64,000 nucleotides of DNA from an uncultured Fibrobacteraceae bacterium (GTDB taxonomy: Bacteria > Krumholzibacteriota > Krumholzibacteriia > LZORAL124-64-63). Below are positions 19,633 through 64,000 of this stretch, in pieces. Under the pieces are notes generated by a model. It saw only the letters and a program-made list of their open reading frames with translations. It did no database searches and was not told where the DNA came from. The stretch is from NCBI GenBank assembly GCA_964399195.1, contig CAYNPY010000001.1, forward strand, positions 59 to 64,058, given 5' to 3'. Made by a program: the position numbers and the translations under genes. Position 1 is the stretch's first letter. Each line of letters opens with the position of its first letter.

Positions 19633-19645
19633 CGCGCGCGCGACC

Positions 19646-20641
19646 TCAGGCGCTCTGCAGCGCGGTGATGGCGGCCACGTTGACGATGTCGTCGACGCTG
19701 CAGCCGCGCGACAGGTCGTTGACGCCGCGGGCCATGCCCTGCAGCACCGGGCCCACGGCCTCGGCCCCGGCCAGCCGCTGCACCAGCTTGTAGCCGATGT
19801 TGCCGGCGTCGAGGTCCGGGAAGATCAGCACGTTGGCGCCTCCCGCCACGGCGCTTCCCGGCGCCTTGCGCGAGCCGATGTCCGGCACCAGCGCGGCGTC
19901 GGCCTGCAGCGGCCCGTCGACGGCCAGTCCGGGCGCCTTGCGGCGCACGATCTCCAGCGCGGCCACGACCTTGTCGACGTCGGCGCCGCTGCCGCTGCCC
20001 ATCGTGCTGAAGCTGAGCATGGCCACCTTCGGCTCGAAGCCGCACAGCGCCTTCGCCGTGGCGGCGCTGGCGATGGCGATGTCGGCCAGCTGCTCGGGGT
20101 CCGGCTGCGGGTTGACCGCGCAGTCGCCGAACACCAGACGACCCTCGTCGCCGAACTCCCAGCCCTCCTTGACCATGACGAAGCAGCTCGAGACGATCGA
20201 CGTGCCGGGCGCCATGCCGACGATCTGGAAGCCCGCCCGCAGCACGTTGCCGGTCGAGTTGACCGCGCCGGCGACCATGCCGTCGGCCAGCCCCCGGCGG
20301 ACCAGCATCGCGCCGAAGAACAGCGGGTCTTCCAGCGTGCGGGCCGCTTCACTCTCGGTCATGCCCTTGTGGCGGCGCAGCTCGAAGTACTCGCGCGCGA
20401 ATTCGGCCCGGTAGGTCGAGCGGGCCGGGTCGATCACGCGCAATCCGGCCGCGTCCAGCCCCAGCGCGGCGGCTTTCGCGGCCACGTCCGCCTCGGCCCC
20501 CAGCACGACGACGTGGGCGAAGCCCTCGTCGCGGATCCGGGCGGCGGCCTTCAGGGTGCGGTCGTCGAGCAGGCACTCGGGCAGGACGATCGTCCTGCCC
20601 AGGCGGGCGGCCCGCGCGCGCAGGGTGGCGGTGAAGTCCAT
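19646..20641 (-). CDS. pta: Phosphate acetyltransferase (short form)
   Basis: The product is [23 protein letters not shown]...[17 protein letters not shown]. It contains the PTA_PTB domain and lies immediately upstream of ackA. Confidence 0.9.
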
Positions 20642-33172: not shown

Positions 33173-33205
33173 ACCAGGGGCCGCCGCCGCGCGCCCGGAA
33201 GGAAC

Positions 33206-36760
<3,555 letters not shown>

Positions 36761-36807: not shown

Positions 36808-38667
36808 ATGCGTTCGTTGCGTCTTACCGTGTCCGTCCCGCCGCGGATCCAGCCGCTGGTGGCGCCGTTCTTCCTGGCGGCGGCCCTCGCGGCGGTCCTG
36901 CTGGCCGCCGCCGGCTGCGGCGGCAAGGGCAAGGAGTTGTCGCCGGACACCGTTCTGGCCAAGGTCGGCGAAACGAAGATCACGGTCGGCTACTACGAGA
37001 AGAAGCTCGGCCGCCTGCACCCGGTCGACCTGCCCCGCGACGACGCCGGCAACACCCTGGACACCGCGCAGATGCCCGGCAAGCGCAAGTTCCTCGACAC
37101 CATCATCAACAAGGACGTGATGGTGGAGGTCGCGACGCAGCTCGGGTTCCTCGAGGACGCGCAGATCGACTACGCCCGCAAGACCCTCATCTCGAACGAG
37201 GCGGTGGGCGCGGCCCGCAAGCGCTTCGTCGACGAGCCGGCCTCGAAGTTCACCGAGGAGGACGTCCAGAAGTTCTACGAGAAGTTCGGCACCGTGCGCC
37301 ACTGCCGCTACTTCATCACGAACACGCTGGAGGACGCCCGCCGCGGGCGCGAGAAGGCCCTGGCGGGCGCGGACTGGGCCGACCTCTGGAACGAGTTCCA
37401 CGCCGGGCTCACCGGGCCGACGATCAGCTACGAGATCGATCTGCACTACGGGCGTTTCATCACCTCGTTCGAGGACCCGATCTTCGCGGCCAAGATCGGC
37501 GACATCACCGAGCCGGTGCAGAGCACCTACGGCTGGTGGGTCGTGAAGATCGACGGCGAGGACCAGGCCGAGCGGCCGCCGCTCGAGGAGGCCCGGCAGC
37601 GCATCGAGGCCTCGATCATCAGCCGCAACCAGATGCGCCTGATCGACGCCTTCAAGGCCGAGATCCGCCGCAAGCACGACATGTACATCCGCGAGGACGC
37701 TCTGGTGAAGGCGTACGCCGGCCTGCCGCGCGACGAGGAGATGTTCTATCCCGGCACCAAGGATCCGGTCAGGCGCGAGGACCTGAAGCCGCTGGCTCTG
37801 GAGCCGGCGGACTACGACATGGACTTCTACGGCTACACGGTCAAGGGCGAACCGCGCAAATACACGCTGGGCGACTTCAAGGCGGCCTACGACCGCATGA
37901 GCGTCTTCGAGCGTCCCAAGTGGGCCGAGATGGTCGGCGGCCTGCGCACCAAGATCACCGACGAGATCGACCGCGCGCTGCTCAACTTCGACGCCCAGGA
38001 TCGCGGCCTGGACAAGGATCCGGAGGTGCTCGCGGCCGTGGACGAGCGCATTGACGAGATGCTCGTGGGCAAGCTCTTCGACGAGGGCGTGCACTACGAC
38101 GAGGTCGTGTCGCCCGCGGCGCTCGACTCCGCCTGGGCGCTGCTCAAGGGCGACTACAACCTGCCGGAGACCCGCTCGGGCAAGCGCATTCTCGTCGCGG
38201 ATCAGACGCAGGCGGACAAGGCCCACGCCGCTCTCGAGGCGGGCGAGCCCTGGCGGCGCGTGCTCAACACCTACGGCAGCGACGAGGCGGACAAGGCGCT
38301 GAACGGCAAGCTGGGCCCGATCCGCGCGGACGCGCAGGGCCCCGAGCACGACGCCCTGTTCAGCCTGCAGCCCGGCCAATACAGCACGCCGCGCCGGCTC
38401 GACGACGGTCGTTACTCGATCGTGATGCTGGAGGAGATCGCCGCGCCGCGCAGCCAGGAGCTGGCCGAGGTGGCCGACGCCGTCGTCACGCGCATCCGGA
38501 ACAAGCGCGAGGAGATGGCGTTCCGCGCGGCACTGGACGGCTGGAAGCAGAAGGTCAAGATCGAGGTCTTCGAGGACCGTCTGGCCAAGACCCGCTCGTG
38601 GGAGGAACTGGTCGATGCAGCGAAGCAGGGCAAGCAGCCGCCCGGCGCCACCCCCGCGGGTGGCTGA
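36808..38667 (+). CDS. Peptidyl-prolyl cis-trans isomerase, parvulin-type lipoprotein (PrsA/SurA-like)
   Basis: A real ATG with an AAGGAG RBS lies inside the artefactual 4.9-kb track ORF. The lipobox is LLAAAGCGG, and parvulin regions include HCRYFI and TYGWWVVK. Confidence 0.75.
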   Translation: MRSLRLTVSVPPRIQPLVAPFFLAAALAAVLLAAAGCGGKGKELSPDTVLAKVGETKITVGYYEKKLGRLHPVDLPRDDAGNTLDTAQMPGKRKFLDTIINKDVMVEVATQLGFLEDAQIDYARKTLISNEAVGAARKRFVDEPASKFTEEDVQKFYEKFGTVRHCRYFITNTLEDARRGREKALAGADWADLWNEFHAGLTGPTISYEIDLHYGRFITSFEDPIFAAKIGDITEPVQSTYGWWVVKIDGEDQAERPPLEEARQRIEASIISRNQMRLIDAFKAEIRRKHDMYIREDALVKAYAGLPRDEEMFYPGTKDPVRREDLKPLALEPADYDMDFYGYTVKGEPRKYTLGDFKAAYDRMSVFERPKWAEMVGGLRTKITDEIDRALLNFDAQDRGLDKDPEVLAAVDERIDEMLVGKLFDEGVHYDEVVSPAALDSAWALLKGDYNLPETRSGKRILVADQTQADKAHAALEAGEPWRRVLNTYGSDEADKALNGKLGPIRADAQGPEHDALFSLQPGQYSTPRRLDDGRYSIVMLEEIAAPRSQELAEVADAVVTRIRNKREEMAFRAALDGWKQKVKIEVFEDRLAKTRSWEELVDAAKQGKQPPGATPAGG

Positions 38668-40030
38668 CGGGGCGCGGGCCGGCGGGGTGGTCGGGGCCGT
38701 TTTCGGCGCGGGCGCGCTCGCCGGCGCGCCGGCGGCGCCGGCTCAGGAAGCCGAGCCGGCCGCGGCGACGCCGCCCGCGACCCCGGCGGAGGCGCCGACG
38801 CCGGTGCTGGTCGACCGGATCGTGGCGATCGTGGACGAGGAGCCGATCCTCCAGAGCGACCTCGAGCGCGAGACCGAGTTGTACCGGCTCGAACGCCAGT
38901 ACGCCGGCCAGCCCGTGGCCGACGATCCGGCCGTGGTGCGCCGGGAGATTCTCGACCGGCTGATCGAGAGCAAGCTCATCATCGCCGCGGCCAAGCAGGC
39001 CGACATGAGCGTCGACCCGGAAGCCGTCTCCGGCAGCGTCGACCAGAAGATCCGTCAGTTCGACGAGCACTTCGGCGGCCGCGAAGCGTTCGAGCGCGAG
39101 CTGGCGCGCGCAGGCATGACCCTGGCCGACTACCGCGCGCGCATGGCCGCCCAGCTGCGCGACCAGCAGTACCTGCGCCTGGTCGTGGGCAAGTTCATCC
39201 GGCCGGACATCGAGGTGCTCGAGAACGAGGTGCGGGACTACTACCTGGCGAACCTCGCCGAGATGCCCGCCGAGCCCGACAGCCTGACCATCGCCGACAT
39301 CCTGGTGCCCGTGCAGCCGTCGGTCGAGGCGCGTCGTCGCGTGCAGGAGAAGGTGGAGCGCATCCAGGCCGACCTGAAGGGCGGCCTGCCCTTCGCCGAC
39401 GCGGCGCGGCGCCATTCCGAGGACGCGGCCGCCGCGCGCGGCGGCCTGGTCGGTGCGGTCGGCAGGGAGGACCTCTACGACGCGGGCCTGGCGCGGGCAG
39501 TGTTCGCGCTCGCGGCCGGTCAGGTGAGCGAGCCTGTGGTGACCCCGCGGGGCGTGCACCTGGTGCGCGTGGACGAGGTGCGCGGTGACGGCAAGCGCGT
39601 CATCAGCCAGATCTTCCTGCCGGTCAGCGCCACCGAGCAGGACGTGGCGGCGGCGCGAGCGCAGGCCGACGCGGCGCGGGCGCGCGTGACCGGCGGCGAG
39701 TCGTTCGCGCTGGTTGCCTCCGAGGTCAGCGCCGATCTGGCTTCGGCCCGCAACGGCGGCGTCCTGGGCACGTTCCGGCTGGAGGACCTGAGCGAGACCT
39801 TCCAGGCGGCGCTGGCCGATCTGCCGGAAGGCGCGGTCAGCGAGCCCGTGCTGACGACCGCCGGCTGGTACGTGTTCAAGGTGCTCGCGCGCAAGCCGGG
39901 CCACATGTACACCTACGAGGAACTGTCGGAGCAGCTGCGGCAGGCGGTCGAATCGCAGAAGATCGAGGCGGCGCTCACCGAGTACGTCAAGGGCCTGCGC
40001 AAGCGCTTCTTCATCGAAGAGAAGAGCTGA
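38615..40030 (+). CDS. surA: SurA-like chaperone / peptidyl-prolyl isomerase (SurA_N + two parvulin domains)
   Basis: It has a signal peptide, a SurA N-terminal domain (VDRIVAIVDEEPILQSDL) and parvulin domains (RHSEDAAAARGGLVGAV, VVTPRGVHLVRVDE). The start is either ATG 38615 or GTG 38660, the latter overlapping the previous stop by 8 bp. Confidence 0.75.
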   Translation: MQRSRASSRPAPPPRVADGARAGGVVGAVFGAGALAGAPAAPAQEAEPAAATPPATPAEAPTPVLVDRIVAIVDEEPILQSDLERETELYRLERQYAGQPVADDPAVVRREILDRLIESKLIIAAAKQADMSVDPEAVSGSVDQKIRQFDEHFGGREAFERELARAGMTLADYRARMAAQLRDQQYLRLVVGKFIRPDIEVLENEVRDYYLANLAEMPAEPDSLTIADILVPVQPSVEARRRVQEKVERIQADLKGGLPFADAARRHSEDAAAARGGLVGAVGREDLYDAGLARAVFALAAGQVSEPVVTPRGVHLVRVDEVRGDGKRVISQIFLPVSATEQDVAAARAQADAARARVTGGESFALVASEVSADLASARNGGVLGTFRLEDLSETFQAALADLPEGAVSEPVLTTAGWYVFKVLARKPGHMYTYEELSEQLRQAVESQKIEAALTEYVKGLRKRFFIEEKS

Positions 40031-51924: not shown

Positions 51925-51966
51925 CCCGTCTTGACGCGGCGGAGACCGCCGTCCAGCGGCAGCGCA

Positions 51967-51995
51967 GCAAGGGGGAGCCGGCGGTTCCCCCTTGC
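51967..51995 (+). terminator. GC-rich hairpin (10-bp perfect stem GCAAGGGGGA/TCCCCCTTGC) downstream of lipoprotein gene
   Basis: It is a perfect inverted repeat with a 9-nt loop, 43 bp after the stop codon. It has no U-tract, so it is a terminator-like structure only. Confidence 0.35.
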
Positions 51996-52059
51996 GCGTG
52001 TCCGCACGCCGGACAAGCGCGGGCTGGTCGCAGCGCCGCCCCGCGCTTACCATGCGCGC

Positions 52060-53079
52060 ATGTCCAGCGGCCACGCCATCCCAACTTCTCCGCGGCAGGG
52101 TAAGCCGCGACCCCGGCAGCGGCGGGGATCTGCGGCGCTCGTCGCGTGCGCGCTGCTCGCGCTGGCGACCCTGGCCGGCTGCGGCCGCGACGACGCCCCT
52201 GACAGGATGGACACCTCGCGCGGCGACGCTCCGCGCGCGGCGACGGATCGGGCCACCGGGCCGGAGCCGGGCTCGGCGGCGGCGCCCGCGCCCGCGCTCC
52301 CGGCGGCGCCGGCGACCGAACCGGCCGACGGCGGCGCCTCCGCCGGTCCGCGCGTGGCGCTGGTGATCGACGACCTCGGCCAGAGGCTCGGCGGGCCCGA
52401 CGCCGCTCTGCTTGACCTGCCCGTGCCGCTGACGCTGGCGGTGCTGCCGGGCCGCCCGCAATCGCGCGCGATCGCCGACCGGGCGACGACGCCGCGCGGT
52501 CCGGACGACCCCGCCCGCCGCGAGCTGTTCCTGCACCTGCCGATGGAGCCCGAGGGCTACCCGAGCCCGGATCCCGGCCCGGGCGCGCTGCTGCGCGGGC
52601 AGTCGCCGGCGCAGGTGGCCGGGCTGCTGGACGGCGCCCTGGCCTCGGTGCCCGGCGCCGTGGGCGTCAACAACCACATGGGCAGCGCCGCGACCGCCGA
52701 CTCGCTGCTGATGTCGGCGCTGATGGCGGCCCTCGCCGAGCGGGGACTGCGCTTCCTGGACAGCCTGACCACGCCGCGCTCGGTCGCCTGGCGCGCCGCG
52801 CGGGAGGCGGGGGTGCCGACGGCGAGGAACCGGATCTTCCTGGACGCCGAGCCCGCGGACGAAGCCACCATCGCGGCCCGGCTGGCCGAACTGGTGGCCA
52901 CCGCGCGCCGGTCGGGCGCGGCGGTCGGGATCGCCCATCCGCACGCGGCGACCGCCGCGGTGCTGGCGCGCGACGTTCCGCGTTACCAGCAGGAGGGAGT
53001 GCGTTTCGTGACCGTCTCGGAACTGATGCCGCCGGCCGTGGCGGCGCTGGTCGAAGGCGGGGAGGACCATGGCCGCTGA
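52060..53079 (+). CDS. Divergent polysaccharide deacetylase family protein (YibQ-like), lipoprotein
   Basis: The lipobox is LATLAGCG. The domain carries RVALVIDDLGQ...LTLAVLP...HLPMEP...GVNNHMGS, which are YibQ/DUF610 signatures. The start is placed at ATG 52060 inside the track ORF 51931..53079. Confidence 0.7.
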   Translation: MSSGHAIPTSPRQGKPRPRQRRGSAALVACALLALATLAGCGRDDAPDRMDTSRGDAPRAATDRATGPEPGSAAAPAPALPAAPATEPADGGASAGPRVALVIDDLGQRLGGPDAALLDLPVPLTLAVLPGRPQSRAIADRATTPRGPDDPARRELFLHLPMEPEGYPSPDPGPGALLRGQSPAQVAGLLDGALASVPGAVGVNNHMGSAATADSLLMSALMAALAERGLRFLDSLTTPRSVAWRAAREAGVPTARNRIFLDAEPADEATIAARLAELVATARRSGAAVGIAHPHAATAAVLARDVPRYQQEGVRFVTVSELMPPAVAALVEGGEDHGR

Positions 53080-54166
53080 GGTCCTGTTCTGGCCGCTGCC
53101 GGCGGGCCCGGGCGCGGACCTCGCTCCGCCCGATCCCCGGCCCGGGTTGCGCCGGCTGGTCGCGGCCGCCGGCCTCGTCGGCGCCGCGCGCCCGGGCGAG
53201 CGCTGGCTGCTGAAGGCGCCCGTGCCGGCCCCGGGCCGGCCGCCGGCCGTACCGCCGGCCTGGCTCGAGGAACTCGGCGCCTCACTGGCCGGGCGCGCGG
53301 CGCCGCCCGCGCCGGCGGCCATCCATGTCACCGACACGCTGTCGATCTCCACGCGGGGCCTCGAGACGCCGGCCGGCCTGCGCGAGGCGGCCCTGGGCCG
53401 CGGCTACGGGGCGCCCGGCGCGCTGCCGTTCGTGGTCGGCGACGACCCGGCCGGGCCGCCGGCCTGGCCGCTGGCTGACGGGCCGCAGGGACACGCGCTG
53501 GCCGGCGTTCTGGCCGCGGCGGCCGGCCTGGCCGTCGTGGCCCCGCTGCGTCCGCACCCGCACCTGGGCGCGGTCGGCGCGGTGGCCGCGCTGGGCCTGG
53601 ACCTGGCCGACCGTGCTTCGCGCCTGGCCCTGCACCGGGGCATCAGGCCGCAGGTCGACACCCCGCTGTGCGCGGGCTGCGGCAGCTGCCTGGATGTGTG
53701 CCTCTACGACGCGATCGTCATCCGTGCCGGGCGCGCCGTGATCGACCACCGCCTGTGCACCGGCTGCGGGGAATGCATGGGCGTCTGCTTCATGGCCGGC
53801 ATCGCCCCCGAAGCGGCCGCCGGCGTGGCGGCCTTCCGGGCCGCGGTGGCCGCGGCGGCCGCCGGGACGGCCCGGCAGCTGGCCGCAGGGCCGGCGCGGC
53901 CGCTCCTGCACCTGGTCCTTTTGCTGAAACTGGACGCCCACGGGGGCGGCGGCCGGGCTCGCCGCCGGCCGCCGGTGGCCGGGATCGGGATCCTGGCCGG
54001 GCGCGATCCGGTGGCCGTCGACAGCGCAGCCTTCGACCTGCTGGCCGGGCGGCTGGGTGAACCCCTCAGCGGGTGGAGCGGGTACGCCCAGGCCCCCGAG
54101 CCGCTGCTGGACCACGCGGCGGCGCTGGGCCTGGGCACGCGGGAATACCGGCTGCGCGAGGTCTGA
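53069..54166 (+). CDS. DUF362 domain protein with two 4Fe-4S ferredoxin-type motifs
   Basis: The two Cys motifs are CAGCGSCLDVC and CTGCGECMGVC. It overlaps the previous gene by 11 bp. Confidence 0.55.
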   Translation: MAAEVLFWPLPAGPGADLAPPDPRPGLRRLVAAAGLVGAARPGERWLLKAPVPAPGRPPAVPPAWLEELGASLAGRAAPPAPAAIHVTDTLSISTRGLETPAGLREAALGRGYGAPGALPFVVGDDPAGPPAWPLADGPQGHALAGVLAAAAGLAVVAPLRPHPHLGAVGAVAALGLDLADRASRLALHRGIRPQVDTPLCAGCGSCLDVCLYDAIVIRAGRAVIDHRLCTGCGECMGVCFMAGIAPEAAAGVAAFRAAVAAAAAGTARQLAAGPARPLLHLVLLLKLDAHGGGGRARRRPPVAGIGILAGRDPVAVDSAAFDLLAGRLGEPLSGWSGYAQAPEPLLDHAAALGLGTREYRLREV

Positions 54167-54350: not shown

Positions 54351-55961
54351 ATGAACCGTTCCCTGCAGATCCGGGCAGGGCTGAGCGCCGTGGTCGTCCT
54401 GCTGTCGATCTACGGCCTGCTGCCGACCTTCAAGGCCCTGTCGATCTCGCACGCCGAGCGGGAGGCCGCCAAGGCCAACCCCGAGCGGCTGGCCGAGATC
54501 GAGGCCATCGACGCCAAGGCGATCCGCCGCGGGCTCGACCTCAAGGGCGGCATGTACCTGGTCCTCGAGGTCGACCAGACCGGCATGGACGCGGGCCAGG
54601 CCCAGGACGCCCTGCAGAGGGTCAAGGAGATCCTCTACAACCGCATCGACAAGTTCGGCGTCTCGGAGCCCGAGATCACGACCTTCGGCTCCAGCCGCAT
54701 CGTCGTCAAGCTGCCCGGCCTTCAGGATCCCGAGCGCGCCAAGGCGCTGCTGGGCACCACGGCCAAGCTGGAGTTCCGGCTGGTGCGCCAGCCTGACGAC
54801 CTGCAGGACGCGTTGACGCGCCTGGACCAGGCGTTCGCCGGCAGCGTGCAGGCGCCGGCGGTCGCTCCCGGGGACTCGGCGCTGGTCGACCAGGAGCAGC
54901 TGCTGGCGCAGCGCCCGTTCAGCGGCCTGGTCGTCATGCAGCAGGGCATCGCCTCGACGCCGCTGTTCGTGGCGGAGGAAAACGTCGACCGCCTGCAGGC
55001 CATGCTGGACGATCCGCGCACGAAGGCGCGCCTGCGCGGCGTCGAGTTCCAGCTGGGCATGGATCCCATGAACTTCGGCGGCGCCACCCAGATGCGGCCG
55101 CTCTACCTGGTGGACGCCGAGCCGATCATCAGCGGCGACCAGCTGACCGACGCCCTCAGCACCGCCGACAACGAGCGGCCGGGCATGTGGCAGGTCAACT
55201 TCACCCTGGGCAGCCGCGGCGCCCGCGATTTCGGCCGCGCCACGGGCGAGAACGTGGGCCGTTTCCTGGCCATCTCGCTGGACGGGCGCATCTCCTCGGC
55301 GCCGGTCATCCAGTCGCGCATCACCAGCAACGGCTCGATCACCGGCAACTTCAGCAACGCCGAGGCCAGCGACCTGGCGCTGCTGCTGCGCGCCGGCGCG
55401 CTGCCGACGGACATCACCATCGCCGAGGAGCGCACCGTGGGACCGAGCCTGGGCTCGGACTCGATCCGCATGGGCGTGAACGCCGCCCGCTGGGGCGCGC
55501 TGCTGGTGGTCGTGTTCATGCTGATCTACTACCGCGGCGTCGGGCTGGTGGCCGTCACCGCGCTGGCGGCGAACATTCTGATCGTGCTGGCCGTGCTGGC
55601 CCAGTTCGACCTGGTGCTGACGCTGCCGGGCCTGGCCGGCATCGCGCTGACGGTCGGCATGGCGGTCGACGCCAACGTGCTGATCAACGAGCGCATCCGC
55701 GAGGAGCTGCGCAAGGACAAGACGGTGCGCGCCGCGGTGGAGGCCGGCTACCAGAACGCGACGCGCACGATCATCGACGCCAACGTGACGACGCTGATCG
55801 CCGGCGGCGTGCTGCTGTGGTTCGGCACCGGTCCGGTCAAGGGTTTCGCCGTCACGATGTGCATCGGCATCCTGACGAGCATGTTCACCGCCCTGGTCCT
55901 GACCCACGCGATCATGGACCTGGTCACGCGCAACCGGAATCGGCAGACGCTGAGCATCTGA
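54351..55961 (+). CDS. secD: Protein translocase subunit SecD
   Basis: The ATG at 54351 has a GGGAGAG RBS and lies inside the longer track ORF. The product has a SecD periplasmic domain and the six-TM SecD/SecF core (GLAGIALTVGMAVDANVLINERIREE). Confidence 0.9.
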   Translation: MNRSLQIRAGLSAVVVLLSIYGLLPTFKALSISHAEREAAKANPERLAEIEAIDAKAIRRGLDLKGGMYLVLEVDQTGMDAGQAQDALQRVKEILYNRIDKFGVSEPEITTFGSSRIVVKLPGLQDPERAKALLGTTAKLEFRLVRQPDDLQDALTRLDQAFAGSVQAPAVAPGDSALVDQEQLLAQRPFSGLVVMQQGIASTPLFVAEENVDRLQAMLDDPRTKARLRGVEFQLGMDPMNFGGATQMRPLYLVDAEPIISGDQLTDALSTADNERPGMWQVNFTLGSRGARDFGRATGENVGRFLAISLDGRISSAPVIQSRITSNGSITGNFSNAEASDLALLLRAGALPTDITIAEERTVGPSLGSDSIRMGVNAARWGALLVVVFMLIYYRGVGLVAVTALAANILIVLAVLAQFDLVLTLPGLAGIALTVGMAVDANVLINERIREELRKDKTVRAAVEAGYQNATRTIIDANVTTLIAGGVLLWFGTGPVKGFAVTMCIGILTSMFTALVLTHAIMDLVTRNRNRQTLSI

Positions 55962-56046
55962 CGCGGCTGCGGCCGCCACGCGAACCGCCGCGCCCCGCGC
56001 GGCCCGACAGGAGCCGGGTCCCGACCCGGGAAAGGCCAAGAGCGAC

Positions 56047-56982
56047 ATGCTGCAGTTCTTCCGGAACGCCAACTTCAATTTCGTCGGCGCCATGAAGCCG
56101 TGCTTCGTCGCCTCGGCGGCGCTGGTGGTCGTCAGCCTGGTCCTGATGCTGATCCACGGCGGACCGCGGCTGAGCATCGACTTCACCGGCGGCTCCGTGC
56201 TTCAGGTGAAGTTCGCCGCCAGCCCCGGCATCAGCCAGGTGCGCGCCGACCTCGAGGCCAAGGGCTACGCCGGCGTCCAGGTGACGGAGTTCGGCGCCGC
56301 CAACGAGTACCTGATCACGGTGGCCTCGGCGAAGAACGCCAGCGGCGAGCAGGCGGCCGACACGGCCCAGAAGCTGCTGGAAGACCTGCGCACCACCTTC
56401 CCCGCCGCCGGCGTGGAGCTGCGGCGCGTGGAGTCGGTCGGTCCGAAGATCGGCGGCGAGCTGCGCACGGCGGCCATCAACTCGATCATCGCCGGCCTGT
56501 TCATGATCATCATCTACATCTGGCTGCGCTTCGTGCTGCGTTACGGTTTCGCGGCCATCGCGGCCCTGGTCCACGACGTGACGCTGACCCTGGGCATCTT
56601 CTCGCTGCTGGACCTGGAGGTCAGCCTGCAGATCGTGGCCGCGCTGCTGACGATCGTCGGCTACTCGATCAACGACACCATCGTGGTCTTCGACCGCATC
56701 CGCGAGAACATGAAGCTGCGCCGCAAGGAGAGCTACCGCGAGGTCATCAACCGCTCGATCAACGAGACGCTCAGCCGCACCATCCTGACCTCGGCCACGA
56801 CGATGGTGGTCTCGGTGATGCTGTGGACCATGGGCGGGCCGGTGATCCGGGACTTCGCCTTCGCGCTGAGCTTCGGCATCTTCATCGGCACGTACAGCTC
56901 GATCTTCATCGCCAGCCCGCTGCTGGTCTGGTGGTACGAGCGCCGGGCCGTCGATTCGAAGCGGGCGGCGCCGACGATGTAG
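56047..56982 (+). CDS. secF: Protein translocase subunit SecF
   Basis: The product carries IDFTGGS, a six-TM core and VVFDRIREN. It follows secD. Confidence 0.9.
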   Translation: MLQFFRNANFNFVGAMKPCFVASAALVVVSLVLMLIHGGPRLSIDFTGGSVLQVKFAASPGISQVRADLEAKGYAGVQVTEFGAANEYLITVASAKNASGEQAADTAQKLLEDLRTTFPAAGVELRRVESVGPKIGGELRTAAINSIIAGLFMIIIYIWLRFVLRYGFAAIAALVHDVTLTLGIFSLLDLEVSLQIVAALLTIVGYSINDTIVVFDRIRENMKLRRKESYREVINRSINETLSRTILTSATTMVVSVMLWTMGGPVIRDFAFALSFGIFIGTYSSIFIASPLLVWWYERRAVDSKRAAPTM

Positions 56983-57023
56983 CCGGGCAGGGGCGATCTC
57001 GCCCGTGCCTGCCGAGCCCATGC

Positions 57024-57067
57024 ATCAAAAACGCGGCCGCGCCCTGCAGGGCGCGGCCGCTTTCGTC
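57024..57067. terminator. Bidirectional rho-independent terminator (perfect 14-bp palindrome GCGGCCGCGCCCTG/CAGGGCGCGGCCGC flanked by A-run and T-run)
   Basis: The sequence CATCAAAAAC-stem-loop-TTTCGTC lies between the convergent secF (+) and cytochrome (-) genes. Confidence 0.75.
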
Positions 57068-57096
57068 GGGACTGGAGCGCGGGGCGGCCCGTCCGG

Positions 57097-58227
57097 TCAG
57101 GGATCCAGAGGCTGGACGCCGGGGACGGTCGCGCGGTGGCATTCGAGGCAGGCCCTGCCCTGGTCGTGGTTCTGCCCGTGGCACTTGCGGCACAGCTGGC
57201 GCTGATCCGGGTCGGGGTAGGGGCTCGGCAGGGGCCAGGAGCCGGAGGCGACGCCGTCGTCGGCCAGGTGGTAGACGCGGAAGTCCCAGCGCCCGGACGC
57301 CGGCGCCGACGAGGCGTGCGCGCGGTGGCAGGTCAGGCAGTGCAGGCGCCCGGCGGTGCCCGGCCCGGCGGTGCGGTCGACCGCGGCGTCGGCGGCCTCG
57401 AAGGGGACCTCCGGCAGGTACGACGTCCCGGCCGCGCCGCCGGTGGGGTTCGCATCGCCGTCGTACATCTCGTAACGCCGCCGCACGCCGGAATCGAGCA
57501 GTTCGTCGACAGGATGCCCGAAGGCCGTCCCGCCGCTGTCGTGGTAGAAGCCGTGGCAGTTCGCGCACCAGCGCGTCATGCCCGAGACGTAGGCGCTGTG
57601 CGCCAGCCTCGACTCCACCGCCGCCGGATCGGTCACCGGGAGCCCGACGGCCACCGGCGCCGGGTAGGCGAAGTGGGCGATGCCGCCCTGCACGGGTCCA
57701 ACGCCGCGCAACATCCGGAAGCCGGCGGTGCCGTGCGGGTCGTGGCAGCTGGTGCAGCCCAGCGAGGCGGACGGAAACGTGCCGCCGGGCGCGCGGGACC
57801 AGCGGCTCTCGGCGGTCAGCCCCCAGGCCGGGGAGACGATGCTGTGGCCGGCGGCCTCGCCGGGCAGGCGCGGCGCCAGGGGGTCGGTGGCGTCGTCCAG
57901 GTCGTCCTCCAGCAGGAACACGAAGTTGCCCGCGCCGAGTTCGCGCGGCGGCTGCAGCGGGTTGAGTCCCATGACGCCGTCGCCGTGGCAGGTCAGGCAG
58001 AGGTCGGTCGAGGAGGCGGCCAGCAGCAGCGGCCGCAGCCCGTCCAGCGCCACCTGTCCGGCGGCGGCGTCGTGCATCACGTGGCAGCGTTCGCAGGTGC
58101 CCACGCCGCCGTCGTGGAACGCGCCGGCCGCGGGCGGAAGGCAGGCGCCGACGGCGGCCAGCGCAACCGCGGCAGCCGCGGCGCGCGGGCGCCGGGAATC
58201 TGAGGATCGGTATGCAGGGATCGCCAT
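57097..58227 (-). CDS. Multiheme c-type cytochrome (7 CxxCH motifs), secreted, 376 aa
   Basis: The ATG at 58227 gives a product starting MAIPAYR with a signal peptide. The heme-binding motifs are CERCH, CLTCH, CTSCH, CANCH, CLTCH, CRKCH and CLECH. It is a paralogue of the next gene. Confidence 0.85.
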   Translation of the reverse strand: MAIPAYRSSDSRRPRAAAAAVALAAVGACLPPAAGAFHDGGVGTCERCHVMHDAAAGQVALDGLRPLLLAASSTDLCLTCHGDGVMGLNPLQPPRELGAGNFVFLLEDDLDDATDPLAPRLPGEAAGHSIVSPAWGLTAESRWSRAPGGTFPSASLGCTSCHDPHGTAGFRMLRGVGPVQGGIAHFAYPAPVAVGLPVTDPAAVESRLAHSAYVSGMTRWCANCHGFYHDSGGTAFGHPVDELLDSGVRRRYEMYDGDANPTGGAAGTSYLPEVPFEAADAAVDRTAGPGTAGRLHCLTCHRAHASSAPASGRWDFRVYHLADDGVASGSWPLPSPYPDPDQRQLCRKCHGQNHDQGRACLECHRATVPGVQPLDP

Positions 58228-58368
58228 GGACCGTCCGCCGGTGCGCGTGGGGGTGATCGCCGCCGCATCCGGGGCGGATCGCACGGAAAAATCATAGCAC
58301 ACGGGCCCGCGCGGCACCAGCGCGTCCGCCCCCGGCGGGCCGCGTGGAGCGGCAAGGCGGCGAAAGCG

Positions 58369-58400
58369 AGGGGCCCCGCGCGATCGCTCGCGCGGGGCCC
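58369..58400 (-). terminator. Strong hairpin (14-bp perfect stem GGGGCCCCGCGCGA/TCGCGCGGGGCCCC, 4-nt loop) between the two small cytochrome genes
   Basis: It lies 24 bp downstream of the stop of the 58424..59530 gene on the minus strand. It is followed on that strand by CGCTTTCG. Confidence 0.5.
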
Positions 58401-58423
58401 CGGAACAGCCGTCGGTCCTGGCC

Positions 58424-59530
58424 CTAGTGGGTGGCGCCGGGATGGTCGTACTGATCCTTCGCGTGGCACTTGTTGCACAGCGAGCGCTGGTTGGCCACGA
58501 ACGTGTAGTTGTAGTACTTGCGGTCGACGTCGGTCTGCACGAAGCCGACATCCGACGTGTTCGGGTGCGACTGCGAGATGAAGTTCACGCCCATGTCCCA
58601 GCGCGCGATGTCCGCGAACGGCGAGGCGTGCGCGCGGTGGCAGCTCAGGCACATGACTTCATCGACGCCCGTCGGGCCCTGCGTGTAGTTCGCGGGATCG
58701 GCGGTGGCCAGGTCGACGTTGACGGCCTCGAACGGCACCAGACCCCAGTACGAGGTGGCTTCGTTGCCGCTGACCAGGTCGTCCGAGCTCACGTACGCGT
58801 TGTAGGTCGCCGCGACCAGCGAGCCCATGGGCCGCGTCGGGTGCGTGAAGTCGGTCGTGTAGTCGGAGTGGAAGTCCCGGTGGCAGTTGGCGCACCAGTC
58901 GCTCATGCCGCTCTTGTAGATGGTGTGGTCGGTGTTCGTCTCCACGCCCGGCTGCGTGCCGTACGTGTTGCGCGAGTTGCCCTTGGCCAGCGGGGCCGGG
59001 TACTGGAAGCTGTACCGGGTGCCGCCGTAGATCGGGCCCATCTGGGTGCCGTAGAGCAGGCGGAAGTTCTCGTTGCCGTGCGGGTCGTGGCAGCTCGTGC
59101 AGCCGAGGCGCGAGCTGAGGAAGCTGCCGCCCGGGGCCGACGCCAGGGTGGCGTCCTGCGCGATGCCGCGCGCCGGCGAGATCACGTTGTGGCCGTGGCT
59201 GTCACCGGTGCTGTTGTACGTCGTGCCGCGCGACACCCAGGAGAAGGTGCGCGTGACCCAGTAGAAGTCGCCGCCGGGGCCGTAGCCCTCGCCGCTGCGG
59301 AACTGGCCGTAGTTGGCGTGGCAGCGCAGGCAGGTGTCCGAGGCACTGCCGGCGTTCAGCAGGTAGGCGTTGCCGTTCGGGTGAGCGGCGTCCACCGGCG
59401 CGCCGTTCTGGCTGTTGTGCATGGTATGGCAGCCGGCGCAGTAGGCGACGCCGGCGTCGTGGAACGCCAGCACCGAGCTGGCCGACAGGCCGAGCGCCAG
59501 CACCAGGGCGATCTTGATGAAAGTCTTCAC
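58424..59530 (-). CDS. Multiheme c-type cytochrome (6 CxxCH motifs), secreted, 368 aa
   Basis: The GTG start has a GGAGG RBS. The product starts MKTFIKIALVLALGLSASSVLA. The motifs are CAGCH, CLRCH, CTSCH, CANCH, CLSCH and CNKCH. It shares the LGCTSCHDPHG / WCANCH / CL[ST]CHRAHAS blocks with the 57097..58227 gene. Its composition is Asn/Tyr/Thr/Ser-rich and its GC is lower than its neighbours. Confidence 0.85.
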   Translation of the reverse strand: MKTFIKIALVLALGLSASSVLAFHDAGVAYCAGCHTMHNSQNGAPVDAAHPNGNAYLLNAGSASDTCLRCHANYGQFRSGEGYGPGGDFYWVTRTFSWVSRGTTYNSTGDSHGHNVISPARGIAQDATLASAPGGSFLSSRLGCTSCHDPHGNENFRLLYGTQMGPIYGGTRYSFQYPAPLAKGNSRNTYGTQPGVETNTDHTIYKSGMSDWCANCHRDFHSDYTTDFTHPTRPMGSLVAATYNAYVSSDDLVSGNEATSYWGLVPFEAVNVDLATADPANYTQGPTGVDEVMCLSCHRAHASPFADIARWDMGVNFISQSHPNTSDVGFVQTDVDRKYYNYTFVANQRSLCNKCHAKDQYDHPGATH

Positions 59531-59712
59531 GTGTGAGCCTCCGAGTGCGAGTTGACGTTTCCCGCGTGGCGGGACGCTTGCGAACTGTCGGCCGCGGGCC
59601 CGGGCTTCATCTCCCGGCGGGCCTGCGGCGCGCGATCGATCCTCCTTCAGGTCGACGCCCCTCAGACGAGCGATTCCCCGTACCAGGCCCGGTCCCGCAG
59701 GACCGGGCGCGT

Positions 59713-60702
59713 CTATTCAACCGTCCCGGCGGCCAGGACGCTGAACACCTGCACGCGACCGCGATAGCCCTGCGCCACGTAGAGGCGCCCGCCGGCGTCC
59801 GTCGCGATGGACACCGGATGGTAGAAGGCGCCCGGCGCGTCGCCGACCACGCCGAATTCACCGCTGAACTCCTGCCGGGCGTCGAAGGCCAGGACCTTGT
59901 GCCGCATCTGGTCCAAAACCAGCAGCGAGCCGTCCGGGCCGGCCGCCACGGCCACCGGCGCCACGAACCGGCCGGGCGAGGCGCCGAAGCGCCCGAACGA
60001 CGCGCGCACGGCGCCGCCTTCCTCGACCAGCAGGATCCGGTGCAGGTTGGCGCCGGGCACCGCGTAGGTGCCGTCCGGCAGCTGGACCGGCCGCCCGAGG
60101 CCCAGTTCGAGTCCGCGGTCGCCGCTCTCGGGCTCGGCGATGACTGCCGACCACAGGACGGCGCCGGTTTCGGCGTCGTGCTTGGCCATCAGGCCGCTCG
60201 CGTCGTCGACCGTGACGTAGTTGCCGTCGCGGGCGACCAGCACGCGACCCGGGCGCCAGCCTTCGCGCGGCGCCTGGGCGGCCCAGCCGTCGGGCTCGCC
60301 GTACACGTCCAGCCGCGCGAGCGTGCGCCGGGCGCCTCCGCTGAGCGAGACGGCGACCAGGCGGCCGGCGTGGTCGATGGCGCCGTCGACCGGCTGCGAC
60401 AGTTCCGCGTAGCCGGAGGTGCGGAAGGCCTCGACGCCCGCGGCGTTGAACACGTGCAGCACGCCGTGCGCGGCGTCGGTCACGACCATGCCGCCGGTGC
60501 GGTCGTCGCAGGTGACGGCCGCGGGCAGCAGGCGCCCGTCCTCGTGGCGCTGCAGTTCAAGGCTCGATTCGTAACGGAACTCGAAACGGTATCCGGCTGT
60601 CCTCGCGTCGGTTGCGGACAGGGCCGGCGCAGGGAGGGCAGATGCGAGCAGGGCCAGCGCCGCGCTTGTCAGCGCGCCAACACCCCACGGGTGTCGGTGC
60701 AT
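59713..60702 (-). CDS. Secreted NHL-repeat beta-propeller protein
   Basis: It has a signal peptide (ALTSAALALLASALPAPALSA) and repeated [YF]-x-P-x-G[IV]A / GR[LI][YL]VAD-like NHL blades (GRLYVAQGYRGRVQVF). Confidence 0.65.
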   Translation of the reverse strand: MHRHPWGVGALTSAALALLASALPAPALSATDARTAGYRFEFRYESSLELQRHEDGRLLPAAVTCDDRTGGMVVTDAAHGVLHVFNAAGVEAFRTSGYAELSQPVDGAIDHAGRLVAVSLSGGARRTLARLDVYGEPDGWAAQAPREGWRPGRVLVARDGNYVTVDDASGLMAKHDAETGAVLWSAVIAEPESGDRGLELGLGRPVQLPDGTYAVPGANLHRILLVEEGGAVRASFGRFGASPGRFVAPVAVAAGPDGSLLVLDQMRHKVLAFDARQEFSGEFGVVGDAPGAFYHPVSIATDAGGRLYVAQGYRGRVQVFSVLAAGTVE

Positions 60703-60920
60703 GCAAACTGCGGCCAAGGTGCGGGGCATCTGTCACGCTCACGTCATGAAGCCGGGGTTTGCGGCGCCCAAGCGGGCTTTTCTTGTCACGGAGATATCAT
60801 ATCACATGGGCGGTGGATGTCAATCATGTCGCCAAAAAAAAAACGTGGGTTCGGTCATGCAGATGACTTTCGCTATCAAAACCTGACCGACCGTCATTCG
60901 GGAAGCCGGTCGCCATGGTG

Positions 60921-60962
60921 GAAAAAACGGCCCCGGCGGCGCCGCGAGGGCACCGCCGGGGC
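60921..60962 (-). terminator. Rho-independent terminator of the giant cytochrome gene (10-bp stem GCCCCGGCGG/CCGCCGGGGC, then U6 on minus strand)
   Basis: On the minus strand the hairpin is followed by CGUUUUUUC. It lies 49 bp downstream of the stop at 61011, in a 300-bp lower-GC intergenic region that also contains an A10/T10 run (60836-60845). Confidence 0.65.
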
Positions 60963-61010
60963 TCGCTGTCCGTGGTCCGCCGAACGGGCCGCGGGCGGCT
61001 GCGCCGCCGC

Positions 61011-64000
61011 TCAGCCTCCCGTCCGCAGCTTGTCGGAGTGGCAGCCGACGCAGAGCTTGCCCTCCGGATCGTCGCGCATGAACCGCGCGAACGGCGAGCC
61101 ATGGGGGTCGTGGCAGCTGCCGCAGGTCATCGTCCGGCCTGTCCGGGGGTCGATCGCGTCCTCGCCGATCGGGTGGTCGGTGTGGTCGCGATAGGTGTGG
61201 CAGCTGAGGCAGACTTCCCGCTGGGTCTTGCCGTCGGCGCCGATTCCGCTCAGGTGCGGGTCGTGGCAGGCGGTGCAGTCGCGGCCGTCGACCACCGGAT
61301 GCCGGTGCGCCGCGGTCCGGTTGGCGTCCGCCTCGGCCTGGTGGCAGCGGGCGCAGACCAGCGCCTGGCGGGCCGGCAGCAGCGGCGAGACCGGCGCCGT
61401 GTGCGCCGCGTGGCAGTTGGTGCAGGCATCTTCGCCGGCCAGCGCGCCGTGCAGCTTGGCGTCCTTCAGGCTGGCCGCCAGGCCGGGGTGGCAGGACAGG
61501 CACAGCGCCGGCTGGGCCTGCTTGGTCGCCACGGCCGTGCCGGCATGGCAGGCGGCGCAGTTGCCGGCCCCGAAGGGCTGGTGCACGTGTTCGTGCGGCA
61601 GGTTCGCGCGCTTGGCCGCGTGCGGAGCGTGGCAACCCGAGCAGTCGGCCTGTGCGACCGGGAAGCCGCGGTGCTTGGCCGGCAACCCTGCCGGCGCGTG
61701 GCACCTGGCGCACAAGACGCTCGGCTGGTCCAGGAGGCTCATCGCCTGATTCGTGCCGTGCGGGTCGTGGCAGCGCGTGCAGTCGCCCGAGCGCAGCGGC
61801 GCGTGCACGACCGGCCACTTCTTCTGGGCCTCGACCGCCTCGTGGCAGCTCGAGCAGAGCGCGGCGGCCGGCTTGACCAGCAGCTTCGGCTCGCTCGAGG
61901 CGTGCGCCTGGTGGCAGGCTTCGCAGCGGCCGTCCCGCACCGGCGTGTGGGCCAGCTCGGGCTTCGGGGCCAGGTCGGCCGGCGCGTGGCAGGCGGCGCA
62001 GGCGTCGCTGGTCCGCGCCGACGGCAGCAGGGCCGGGCCGCGGGCCACGTGCGGGTTGTGGCAGGAGGCGCAGTCGCCTTCGGCGAACGGCGCGTGCGTC
62101 GTCTGCCGCGGCGCCGACGGCTCCGGCAGGCCGTCGTGGCACTGCAGGCACGTCTGGCGCTGGTCGGTCACCGGCGCGGCGCCCTCGTGGCACGAGGCGC
62201 AGTCGCGGTCGCCGAACGGGGCGTGCGCGGCGGCGGCCATCAGCCCCGGCGCGGTGGAGTGGTGCGGCTCGTGGCAGCCCAGGCAGTCCATCCGCAGCGG
62301 ATCGCGCCCGAGATGCTTGTCGGCGAAACCGGCGCTCTTCTCGTCGTGGCAGCCGAAGCAGAGGCCCGGGGCCGGCTCGCGCAGGAACCCGGCGCCCGCG
62401 CCGCCATGCGGCAGATGGCAGTCCAGGCAGGCGTCGCGGCTCGGGGGGTGGATGGACACCGCGCCCTTCGGCGCGGCCACGTCCTCGTGGCACAGGGCGC
62501 AGAGCTTGTCGGCGTCGGTCGCCAGCAGCGCCTTGCGCGGCGAGCGGTGCGCGTCGTGGCACGCGGTGCAGTTGCCGGCGGCCACCGGTTCGTGCCCGCG
62601 CCAGTCGCCTCCCGCCGGCGTTCCCGTGTCGTGGCAGGCGGCGCACGTCGCCCCCGGCGCCTGGCGCAGCAGGCCGCGCTCGGGTCCGCCGTGGGGCAGG
62701 TGGCAGTCCAGGCAGGCGCCCTCGGCAGCGGGCGCGTGGAGCGTCCCTCCGGCCGGCTGCTGGTCGAAGCCGGCGTGACAGCCGGCGCACAGGGCGGCCG
62801 AGGCGTTCTTGAGCAGCGCGGGCTGCGGCGCCGTGTGCGGCAGGTGGCAGGCGGTGCACTCGCCGCGCGCGGCGACCGCGTGCGGGTACGTCGCGATCGT
62901 CTCCATCTGCACCTTGGTGTGGCAGCCCAGGCAGAGCGAGCCGACGGTGTCGACCAGCAGCGTCTTGCGCTCGGAACTGTGCGGCGTATGGCAGACCGTG
63001 CAATCCCGCTTGACCAGCGGCGCGTGCACCGAGGCCGGAGCCGGCGCGGCATCGTCCGGCAGGACGCCCGCATGGCAGCCCGCGCAGAGCGTGTTGGTCG
63101 CCTCCTTCAGCAGCCCCTTGTGGTCGGAGCCGTGGGCGCCATGGCAGGTGGTGCAGTCCCCGCTGGCCACGGGTTCGTGGCGCACCGGCAGCTGGAACGG
63201 CTGCTCCTCGTGGCACTCCAGGCACAGACGCCGCTCCTCGGCGACCAGCAGCGCCGGACGCGCGCTGCCGTGCGGCGCATGGCACTGCCCGCATTCCTTC
63301 GACGCGGCGGGCTCGTGCGGCACCTTGAAGGCCGCCGACGGATCCTCGTGGCACTGCAGGCAGAGCTCGGCGGCCGGCACGGCCAGCGCGGCGCCGCCCG
63401 CCGCGTCGGCGGCATGGCACGCCGAGCAGTCGTTGTCCTGCATCGGCGCGTGGGTCACGGCGTGCAACAGGCCCTCGGAGTCCGAGCTGTGCGGGTCGTG
63501 GCAGGAGACGCAGCCGGCCAGCCCGCCCTGCCCGCCATGGTCGCGCTGGAGGCGCGCGCGGTCGGCATGGCAGCCGAAGCAGAGATCGTCGCCGGCGCGG
63601 ACCAGGAGCCCCCGGTGCGCCGAGGAGTGCGGGTCGTGGCAGGCCGCGCAGCCCTCGCGGGCGAGCGGCCGGTGGACGTGGCGGCGCTTGAAGGGGGCAT
63701 CCTCGTGGCAGGCCAGGCAGGACTGCCACCCGGGAGCGGACAGCAGCCCGGGGTGGCCCGAGCCGTGCGGATCGTGGCAGGCCGAGCAATCGCCCTCGCG
63801 CAGCGGCTCGTGGACGACCGCGGCGCGCGTCACGTCCTTGTAGCCCTCGTGGCAGGCCAGACACAGGTCCCGGCCCGAGGCCTGCAGGACCAGCTTGCCG
63901 ATCACGCCGTGCCGCCGGTGGCAGCCCTCGCAGTTGCGCGTCGCGAACGGCTCGTGCGCGTTCTTGGTCGGCACCTGCTTGAGCGTTTCCTGATGGCAGT
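61011..64000 (-). CDS. Giant polyheme c-type cytochrome, at least 41 CxxCH motifs in the window; 5' end lies beyond the window
   Basis: The 61011..63974 frame is an uninterrupted series of CxxCH motifs (CEGCH, CLACH, CSACH, ...) in repeating units of about 75 aa with about 3 hemes each, resembling c7/c3-type triheme modules. The reading frame stays open to the window edge, where the upstream codons read ...CHQETLKQ, another heme motif. The alternative frame 60820..63864 has no heme motifs and is Arg/Pro/Gly-rich, so it is rejected. Confidence 0.85.
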   Translation of the reverse strand, partial: CHQETLKQVPTKNAHEPFATRNCEGCHRRHGVIGKLVLQASGRDLCLACHEGYKDVTRAAVVHEPLREGDCSACHDPHGSGHPGLLSAPGWQSCLACHEDAPFKRRHVHRPLAREGCAACHDPHSSAHRGLLVRAGDDLCFGCHADRARLQRDHGGQGGLAGCVSCHDPHSSDSEGLLHAVTHAPMQDNDCSACHAADAAGGAALAVPAAELCLQCHEDPSAAFKVPHEPAASKECGQCHAPHGSARPALLVAEERRLCLECHEEQPFQLPVRHEPVASGDCTTCHGAHGSDHKGLLKEATNTLCAGCHAGVLPDDAAPAPASVHAPLVKRDCTVCHTPHSSERKTLLVDTVGSLCLGCHTKVQMETIATYPHAVAARGECTACHLPHTAPQPALLKNASAALCAGCHAGFDQQPAGGTLHAPAAEGACLDCHLPHGGPERGLLRQAPGATCAACHDTGTPAGGDWRGHEPVAAGNCTACHDAHRSPRKALLATDADKLCALCHEDVAAPKGAVSIHPPSRDACLDCHLPHGGAGAGFLREPAPGLCFGCHDEKSAGFADKHLGRDPLRMDCLGCHEPHHSTAPGLMAAAAHAPFGDRDCASCHEGAAPVTDQRQTCLQCHDGLPEPSAPRQTTHAPFAEGDCASCHNPHVARGPALLPSARTSDACAACHAPADLAPKPELAHTPVRDGRCEACHQAHASSEPKLLVKPAAALCSSCHEAVEAQKKWPVVHAPLRSGDCTRCHDPHGTNQAMSLLDQPSVLCARCHAPAGLPAKHRGFPVAQADCSGCHAPHAAKRANLPHEHVHQPFGAGNCAACHAGTAVATKQAQPALCLSCHPGLAASLKDAKLHGALAGEDACTNCHAAHTAPVSPLLPARQALVCARCHQAEADANRTAAHRHPVVDGRDCTACHDPHLSGIGADGKTQREVCLSCHTYRDHTDHPIGEDAIDPRTGRTMTCGSCHDPHGSPFARFMRDDPEGKLCVGCHSDKLRTGG

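Follow-up and report, generated by a model that had tools for sequence, protein, structure and literature searches.

The stretch of DNA analysed here, referred to throughout as the window, comprises 64,000 nucleotides (nt) from an uncultured bacterium placed by GTDB in the Krumholzibacteriota (assembly GCA_964399195.1, contig CAYNPY010000001.1, positions 59 to 64,058 of the forward strand). Its far end is occupied by four consecutive minus-strand genes for secreted proteins, which lie where an earlier, sequence-only reading of the region had placed them (Table 1). In the direction of transcription they encode a giant multiheme cytochrome whose gene begins past the window end, an NHL-repeat beta-propeller and two smaller cytochromes, CytB and CytA. 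Elsewhere in the 64-kb window no further open reading frame (ORF) rich in CxxCH heme motifs and no further multiheme cytochrome was found, and heme motifs of the CX3-4CH or CxxCK type were not seen in the window cytochromes. We propose, with a probability of about 0.7, that the four genes are the distal half of a nine-gene module of the omcS/osc type, which in the Krumholzibacteriota would provide a route for electrons to the outside of the cell.

The two smaller cytochromes are paralogs, as the sequence-only reading had recognised (35% identity, E 2e-58), and by their sequences both are members of the family that includes OmcS of Geobacter sulfurreducens (GSU2504; PDB 6EF8/6NEF), a hexaheme cytochrome that assembles into conductive filaments, and its paralogs OmcT, OscC and OmcJ. 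A phmmer search against the PDB matched CytB to OmcS (6ef8/6nef) at E 3.8e-51 over OmcS residues 1-407, and CytA to 6ef8 at E 9.2e-25 in two stretches. The AlphaFold2 model of CytB (predicted local distance difference test score 72.6) had 6ef8_A as its sole fold match in the PDB (E 7e-20, template-modelling score 0.62), which points to the same fold. In an alignment of 237 OmcS-family sequences, comprising a Krumholzibacteriota-type and a Geobacter-type group, all six CxxCH motifs of OmcS are aligned, in the same order, with motifs of both CytB and CytA. CytB and CytA both keep the distal histidines corresponding to OmcS H2, H16, H110, H147, H257 and H335, as do 97-100% of the members of either group, and CytB retains 12 Cys and 12 His at the ligand positions. 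Among the latter is the N-terminal histidine that bridges neighbouring OmcS subunits at heme 5, reportedly His16 (Wang et al. 2019). In the OmcS filament all 12 axial ligands are histidines, 11 of them supplied within the subunit and one, for heme 5, by the neighbouring subunit (PMC6584659), and the ligand set conserved in CytB and CytA agrees with this scheme. Cleavage of the predicted CytB signal peptide would yield the mature N-terminus FHDAGVAYCAGCHTMHNS, which starts with F-H as does that of OmcS.

Relatives of CytB are abundant: a search retrieved 4110, many of them 60-90% identical and derived from sediment, soil and wastewater metagenomes, and the nearest named ones belong to Krumholzibacteria and Eisenbacteria (62-72% identity). 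CytA departs from OmcS by an additional, seventh CxxCH motif at its C-terminus, 14 residues past the heme-6 motif. Seven motifs are present in 4 out of 92 full-length OmcS-family representatives, and the CytA ortholog in a Candidatus Krumholzibacteriia genome (GCA_041390065.1, locus L089; 62% identity) possesses six. A possible lipobox in CytA (VGAC), considered as the mark of a lipid-anchored base subunit, is not conserved in the ortholog from L087, an 86%-identical relative, and this assignment was rejected. Spurious long ORFs occur in almost every frame of this GC-rich DNA. The start codon of cytB is a GTG with GGAGG located 8 nt upstream; for cytA a longer ATG ORF (57097-58551, 108 codons further upstream) overlaps the 3' end of cytB and was discarded as a start, the ATG at 58227 being the one given by public contig calls and the signal peptide.

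The giant cytochrome displays 41 CxxCH motifs within the window and one more that is cut at base 64000. Public contigs 99.8-100% identical to window positions 55680-64000 were used to extend past the window end. The complete protein comprises 1046 amino acids (aa), with a signal peptide and 42 CxxCH motifs (its gene begins at what would be position 64151, the signal peptide and first motif being read on the identical public contig L001), in line with the expectation of more than 40 hemes and over 1000 residues. The triheme, c7-like modules that the sequence-only reading had postulated were not borne out: the repeat is a diheme (doubled-CXXCH) module of ~48 aa, the best self-similarity shift being 48 aa, or two hemes, with motifs alternating between 'CxxCH..H[EA]P' and 'CxxCHxPH..LL', and TIGR01905 (doubled CXXCH) is matched 21 times (E 9e-192). 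A polymer of c7 triheme domains of the GSU1996/GSU0592 type, with its unit of ~70-80 aa, was therefore rejected. The density of CxxCH motifs is real and no artefact of a frame error, an explanation that had been raised in advance, because the GC content at third codon positions is 0.90-0.94 in the coding frames of the cluster (0.94 in the giant gene), Pfam Paired_CXXCH_1 is matched at E 7e-201, and orthologs of 1037-1046 aa are found in other genomes. The propeller assignment likewise held, the NHL protein matching solved six-bladed NHL propellers in the PDB (Thin, TRIM71, TRIM2, Brat) at E 9e-38.

The gene content upstream of the giant gene was read from the same identical contigs. In the direction of transcription the module runs heptaheme cytochrome, outer-membrane beta-barrel, lipoprotein, 345-aa protein, prolyl isomerase and 42-heme cytochrome, followed, after a terminator and a promoter, by the NHL propeller, cytB and cytA. 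The sequence-only reading had seen no porin within the window and had proposed extending the contig; the extension recovered both the full giant gene and a barrel, the latter three genes beyond the window end. Cytochrome maturation genes (ccm/ResBC), which were also to be looked for, occur neither in the window nor in the extension contigs; ResB and CcsA adjoin the module in Eisenbacteria. The lipoprotein resembles PelC, the ring lipoprotein of the PelBC exopolysaccharide exporter (PDB 9H80; PelC 5T10, 5T11, 5T0Z); the similarity is weak, and it is from this similarity that ring formation is suggested here. The present barrel is much larger than PelB, and the cargo would be a cytochrome rather than a polysaccharide.

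In G. sulfurreducens, omcS is located in an operon named osc, for omcS-companion, which covers GSU2505-GSU2493 (Shen et al. 2025, Cell Chem Biol 32:239, as related in PMC13194489 and PMC12977616), and the two latter articles describe OscC as an OmcS-like hexaheme protein and OscI and OscJ as periplasmic multiheme cytochromes. Scanning species-representative genomes with OmcS residues 1-150 (best match 73% identical) gave 77 OmcS loci, from Geobacterales (including Citrifermentans bremense and three Geomonas species), Nitrospirota, Rokubacteria, Acidobacteriota, Myxococcota, Schekmanbacteria and others. Homologs of the lipoprotein are encoded in 58 of these loci, of the NHL protein in 53 (in other phyla, directly upstream of the OmcS-like genes), of the isomerase in 42 (at the same relative position) and of the giant cytochrome in 33. 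The order in the comparison loci is constant: the NHL gene comes first, then between one and three OmcS-like genes, then genes for proteins of ~480 aa and ~750 aa, the lipoprotein gene, a gene for ~380-450 aa, and lastly those for the isomerase and the doubled-CXXCH cytochrome. Using phmmer and hhalign on cleaned alignments, we could link the barrel family over 657 columns to the ~750-aa positional family (hhalign probability 99.9%, E 3.6e-33); the 345-aa protein was matched to the ~380-450-aa family (93.8%, E 1.8e-7). The channel-like trio of the OscE/F/G positions (barrel, lipoprotein and third protein) is present by comparison with the Citrifermentans, Geomonas and other loci, and the 444-aa protein corresponds to the OscH-type prolyl isomerase. 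The likeness to the osc cluster thus extends to the NHL gene, the OmcS-like genes, the large barrel, the small lipoprotein, the third channel-associated protein, the isomerase and the doubled-CXXCH giant cytochromes, and is based on homology to positional genes in Citrifermentans, Geomonas and 70+ other loci. This positional homology, together with the profile matches of the barrel and the 345-aa protein, makes it very probable that the module is an osc-type cluster. The tie to Geobacter-type extracellular electron transfer drawn by the sequence-only reading is upheld by this homology; the suggestion that the module might be a novel conduit is not, as a recognisable omcS gene and osc-type cluster are present.

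The module nevertheless differs from the osc cluster in several respects. The two blocks are swapped, the machinery coming first and the NHL and OmcS-like genes last, with a terminator and a promoter between them; the OscD-position propeller is absent from the window and its extension; a heptaheme cytochrome of 282 aa, which has no counterpart in the comparison loci, is added; and the equivalents of OscI and OscJ are joined in a single 42-heme protein. As regards the last of these, 25-26-heme proteins (640-669 aa; L040, L048, L059, L082) best align to giant residues 13-655 (E 1e-141 to 1e-156), and 16-heme proteins of 431-435 aa (L059, L082) best align, end to end, to giant residues 668-1038 (E ~1e-69). 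As 26 and 16 add up to 42 hemes and the alignments are colinear, the giant cytochrome is, to judge by its sequence, an OscI-OscJ-type fusion of cytochromes that are separate in Geobacter-type loci. A 42-motif fusion is also encoded in an Eisenbacteria genome (47% identity), and by sequence comparison the fusion, with exactly 42 motifs, is conserved across Krumholzibacteriota and Eisenbacteria. A literature search for 42-heme cytochromes returned nothing relevant.

Table 1. Genes and putative signals of the module. Positions refer to the window; the last five genes were read from identical public contigs.
Feature	Position	Strand	Description
Intrinsic terminator between cytA and convergent secF	57033..57060	minus	12-bp all-GC palindromic stem, then GTTTTTG
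cytA, 7-heme cytochrome, 376 aa	57097..58227	minus	7 CxxCH; divergent OmcS-family paralog
GC-rich hairpin just past the cytB stop codon	58370..58401	minus	14-bp stem, then UCGCUUUCG
cytB, OmcS-family hexaheme cytochrome, 368 aa	58424..59530	minus	6 CxxCH
NHL-repeat beta-propeller, 338 aa, secreted	59713..60729	minus	Pfam NHL; without heme motif
Putative sigma-70-type promoter ahead of NHL gene	60796..60823	minus	TTGACA-16-TATGAT, extended-10 TG; consensus match
Strong intrinsic terminator after giant gene	60930..60962	minus	14-bp stem (13 GC pairs), then CGUUUUUU
Giant cytochrome, C-terminal part (residues ~668-1046, hemes 27-42)	61011..62150	minus	OscJ-position equivalent
Giant cytochrome, N-terminal part (residues ~51-655 in window)	62187..64000	minus	OscI-position equivalent
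Periplasmic PPIC-type prolyl isomerase, 444 aa	nearest upstream of giant gene	same strand	Pfam Rotamase_2, E 5.9e-10
345-aa protein	upstream of isomerase gene	same strand	without family match
Lipoprotein, ~190 aa	upstream of 345-aa gene	same strand	Pfam LpoB; PelC match over almost whole length
Outer-membrane beta-barrel, ~28 strands, 732 aa	upstream of lipoprotein gene	same strand	predicted fold; without family match
Heptaheme cytochrome, 282 aa	farthest upstream of the listed genes	same strand	read on extension contigs

The signals between the genes suggest how the module might be transcribed. The terminator that follows the giant gene folds at -42.6 kcal/mol (z -6.0; none of 200 shuffles equally stable), and the putative promoter ahead of the NHL gene has 11 of 12 consensus matches, where 0.2 such sites would be expected in shuffles. 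From the succession of this terminator and this promoter, the nine genes probably form two transcription units, in which case the OmcS-like genes could be expressed independently of the export machinery. The hairpin behind cytB (-45.2 kcal/mol, z -2.8) possibly terminates transcription in part, or attenuates it, before cytA is reached, and could keep cytA expression low. A TATGAT-containing stretch lies ahead of cytA (58297-58313, minus strand); together, hairpin and stretch may set a lower cytA:cytB expression ratio. As for the bidirectional terminator that had been described beside secDF, the hairpin at 57033..57060 (-32.1 kcal/mol as minus-strand RNA, z -4.1) does form on both strands; a good T-run follows it on the minus strand only, the plus-strand stem being followed by TTTCG. 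Searches of the intergenic regions for Rfam families, including cyclic-dinucleotide riboswitches, gave no match.

A coherent mechanism can be sketched from these components. The proteins would leave the cytoplasm through Sec, and heme would be attached to the cytochromes in the periplasm, where the prolyl isomerase would assist the folding of OmcS-like subunits poor in secondary structure. The barrel, the PelC-like lipoprotein, presumably as a ring, and the 345-aa partner would constitute an outer-membrane exit or anchor. CytB would then polymerise outside the cell, the equivalent of OmcS His16 ligating heme 5 of the adjacent subunit so that a continuous chain of hemes results, while the 42-heme and heptaheme cytochromes of the periplasm would take up electrons at the inner membrane and hand them on to the base of that chain. 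Respiration would in this way be coupled to an insoluble extracellular partner, for instance minerals of iron or manganese, humics or other cells. A respiratory context is seen in an Eisenbacteria relative, whose locus (L090; GCA_018831195.1, 11388-20303) links the module to quinol-side cytochromes and to system II cytochrome maturation. Behind the OmcS-like gene come genes for a 4-heme cytochrome, for a NapC/NirT-type membrane cytochrome with 5 hemes and for a 940-aa protein that carries 19 hemes and a cytochrome b domain, and after these ResB and CcsA of that maturation system; as read from its genes, the locus brings a complete quinol-to-surface route together in one place.

Several observations weigh against an OmcS/osc-type route of this kind. 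CytB and CytA form a separate deep clade, with ~30-37% identity to OmcS and no more than 40% to any Geobacter-type OmcS-like protein, and are ~60 residues shorter than OmcS. A profile built from 14 positional homologs of the OscD-position propeller (~480-500 aa) finds no match at E up to 10, whether in the window or in L084, and none of the nine cluster proteins matches this family. Our Geobacteraceae references are the Citrifermentans bremense and Geomonas loci rather than the G. sulfurreducens Osc proteins, so that the OscE-J labels are positional. Experimental work on the OmcS/osc system is so far confined to Geobacter, and the physiological need for OmcS filaments is disputed (PMC13194489). 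Finally, among the four G. sulfurreducens paralogs OmcS alone is known to form a filament, which homology predicts poorly (PMC12977616); the conserved ligand set is therefore to be regarded as necessary and not sufficient. Whether CytB forms filaments we consider evenly balanced.

What the OmcS-like proteins do if they do not polymerise leads to a different arrangement, in which the barrel houses periplasmic multiheme proteins, as MtrB does MtrA, and the OmcS-like proteins act as monomeric terminal reductases on the cell surface. That three of the four G. sulfurreducens OmcS paralogs are not known to polymerise (PMC12977616) speaks for such a porin-cytochrome conduit, as do weak Pfam matches of CytB and the giant cytochrome to MtrC/MtrF domains. 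An MtrCAB complex as such was rejected: the small cytochromes score far below the DmsE and OmcA/MtrC NCBIfam cut-offs, the DmsE/MtrA and OmcA/MtrC cut-offs being reached by the giant cytochrome only, and that through its repeats (10 repeated stretches in the case of DmsE). Moreover, the clade keeps without exception a histidine that has no role inside the OmcS subunit itself, and a PelC-like lipoprotein and an isomerase suit an export or assembly machine, so that we regard the non-polymerising conduit as unlikely, if worth keeping in mind. A more intricate variant of the filament itself would make CytA a specialised minor subunit (cap, tip or branch point) instead of a redundant duplicate and, separately, the 42-heme fusion a single-chain wire spanning the periplasm and feeding the filament base. 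The proposal for CytA stems from the retention of all docking ligands and from its extra heme 14 residues beyond heme 6, which in OmcS is solvent-exposed near the subunit interface (PMC6584659); in cytochrome filaments, subunits that start or end the chain have been looked for (bioRxiv 10.1101/2025.10.22.684050). We hold this variant to be distinctly doubtful.

The same hardware might alternatively serve mainly to take up electrons, by oxidation of Fe(II) or minerals or from a syntrophic partner, rather than to reduce metals. An OmcS-carrying Krumholzibacteria metagenome-assembled genome (MAG) that became more abundant in an oxygen-limited, iron-fed reactor also had cyc2 and several oxygen reductases (PMC7914226), and clusters combining NHL propellers with cytochromes have been tied to uptake in Desulfovibrio ferrophilus (PMC5815863). 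In strain IS5 of that species extracellular multiheme cytochromes are co-encoded and co-expressed with NHL propellers, in an arrangement conserved in sediment bacteria (Deng et al. 2018, PMC5815863), whereas these cytochromes are called divergent from the Geobacter ones by the authors. Nothing in the sequence sets the direction, however, and the NapC/NirT-type and cytochrome-b-type quinol-side proteins of Eisenbacteria work both ways; a primary role in uptake seems unlikely, and the question is one of physiology rather than of molecular identity, so that uptake can coexist with an omcS/osc-type module. The giant cytochrome could, on yet another account, be chiefly a periplasmic store of electrons, a capacitor, in a cluster that is no dedicated conduit. 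Its 42 hemes in 1046 residues (~25 aa per heme) and the listing of its Geobacter counterparts OscI and OscJ as periplasmic (PMC13194489) fit this account, but its conserved placement, in several phyla, between isomerase, export barrel and OmcS-like genes speaks for a function in the pathway that these serve, and storage and relay are not mutually exclusive; as the principal explanation we find it highly unlikely. An operon for a multiheme reductase enzyme (NrfA, HAO or octaheme type), which the sequence-only reading had named as the result that would overturn it, has in its favour only sub-threshold NrfB/NrfH-like matches that arise from generic heme motifs. No Cytochrom_C552, HAO or octaheme family match appeared at E up to 0.01, CxxCK is lacking, and the extension revealed barrel, lipoprotein, isomerase and OmcS-like genes instead, which leaves this explanation exceedingly improbable.

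Read as an omcS/osc-type module, the cluster is, by homology, a rearranged Krumholzibacteriota version of the known OmcS nanowire system with a fused 42-heme cytochrome. It does not overturn current understanding, and extends the system beyond Geobacter, to an uncultured phylum of the FCB (Fibrobacteres-Chlorobi-Bacteroidetes) group, in the form of a compact nine-gene version with clear boundaries. It also helps to tell core from dispensable parts: barrel, PelC-like lipoprotein, isomerase, NHL propeller and doubled-CXXCH cytochromes are shared, while the OscD-type propeller is missing and OscI and OscJ can be fused. Most noteworthy are the conserved 42-heme fusion, the absence of that propeller, and a conserved second paralog with a seventh heme gained in this lineage. 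Given the size of the clade (4110 matches), Krumholzibacteriota and Eisenbacteria may contribute to iron, manganese or humic redox cycling. OmcS genes in Krumholzibacteria were reported already in 2021, in a MAG from a bioreactor supplied with methane and iron (Dalcin Martins et al. 2021, PMC7914226). That MAG belongs to the same candidate phylum, and OmcS-type genes served there as markers of iron cycling; they were marker-gene hits, and the portions of the article consulted do not describe companion genes, fusion or paralog pair.

The sequence-only reading had also considered horizontal acquisition. Named relatives of the window SecD are all Candidatus Krumholzibacteriota (66-73% identity), and the OmcS-like protein and SecD have similar identity to their named Krumholzibacteriota relatives. 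One relative, with an OmcS-like protein 76% identical to CytB, has the same cluster beside secF, secD, a DUF362 ferredoxin-like gene and a polysaccharide deacetylase, and the GC content of the cluster equals that of the rest of the window, which is uniform. Because of the shared synteny with secDF, the uniform GC content and the parallel identities of the two proteins, a recent transfer is unlikely and vertical inheritance within the lineage is indicated. In the window itself, polysaccharide deacetylase-like and DUF362/4Fe-4S genes adjoin secDF on the plus strand (51931-54166; 79% GC), where they were identified through the Pfam annotations of the relative. The latter carries, between the cytA-type gene and secF, an extra 366-aa gene (12439-13539, without Pfam match) in whose position the window has the terminator only. 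Further context genes in the window are, by Pfam, acetate kinase, Mfd (TRCF), a SurA-type chaperone and an AcrB-family transporter (18436-19824, 33173-36757, 38426-40027 and 4544-8002).

At the other end of the module, the cluster of the relative L087 also has the heptaheme cytochrome as its first gene. Ahead of it (L087 3373-8581) lie a divergent 145-aa gene and a gene for a 1570-aa HAMP/HisKA/HATPase sensor kinase, whose equivalents in the present genome would fall past the window end; the two are a candidate regulator and are followed by DUF4159 and DUF4175 genes (Bat-like aerotolerance genes). In L089 the heptaheme cytochrome gene comes after the OmcS-like pair and not ahead of the barrel gene. 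The 42-heme gene of L089 (5295-8432) is broken into an ORF of 415 aa, colinear with giant residues 42-403, and one of 617 aa, colinear with residues 446-1043. A natural separation of OscI and OscJ was rejected as the cause of this split, since the break falls at giant residues ~403-446, away from the OscI/J junction; at its end the 415-aa ORF runs into atypical, out-of-frame-looking sequence, and the split is probably an assembly frameshift.

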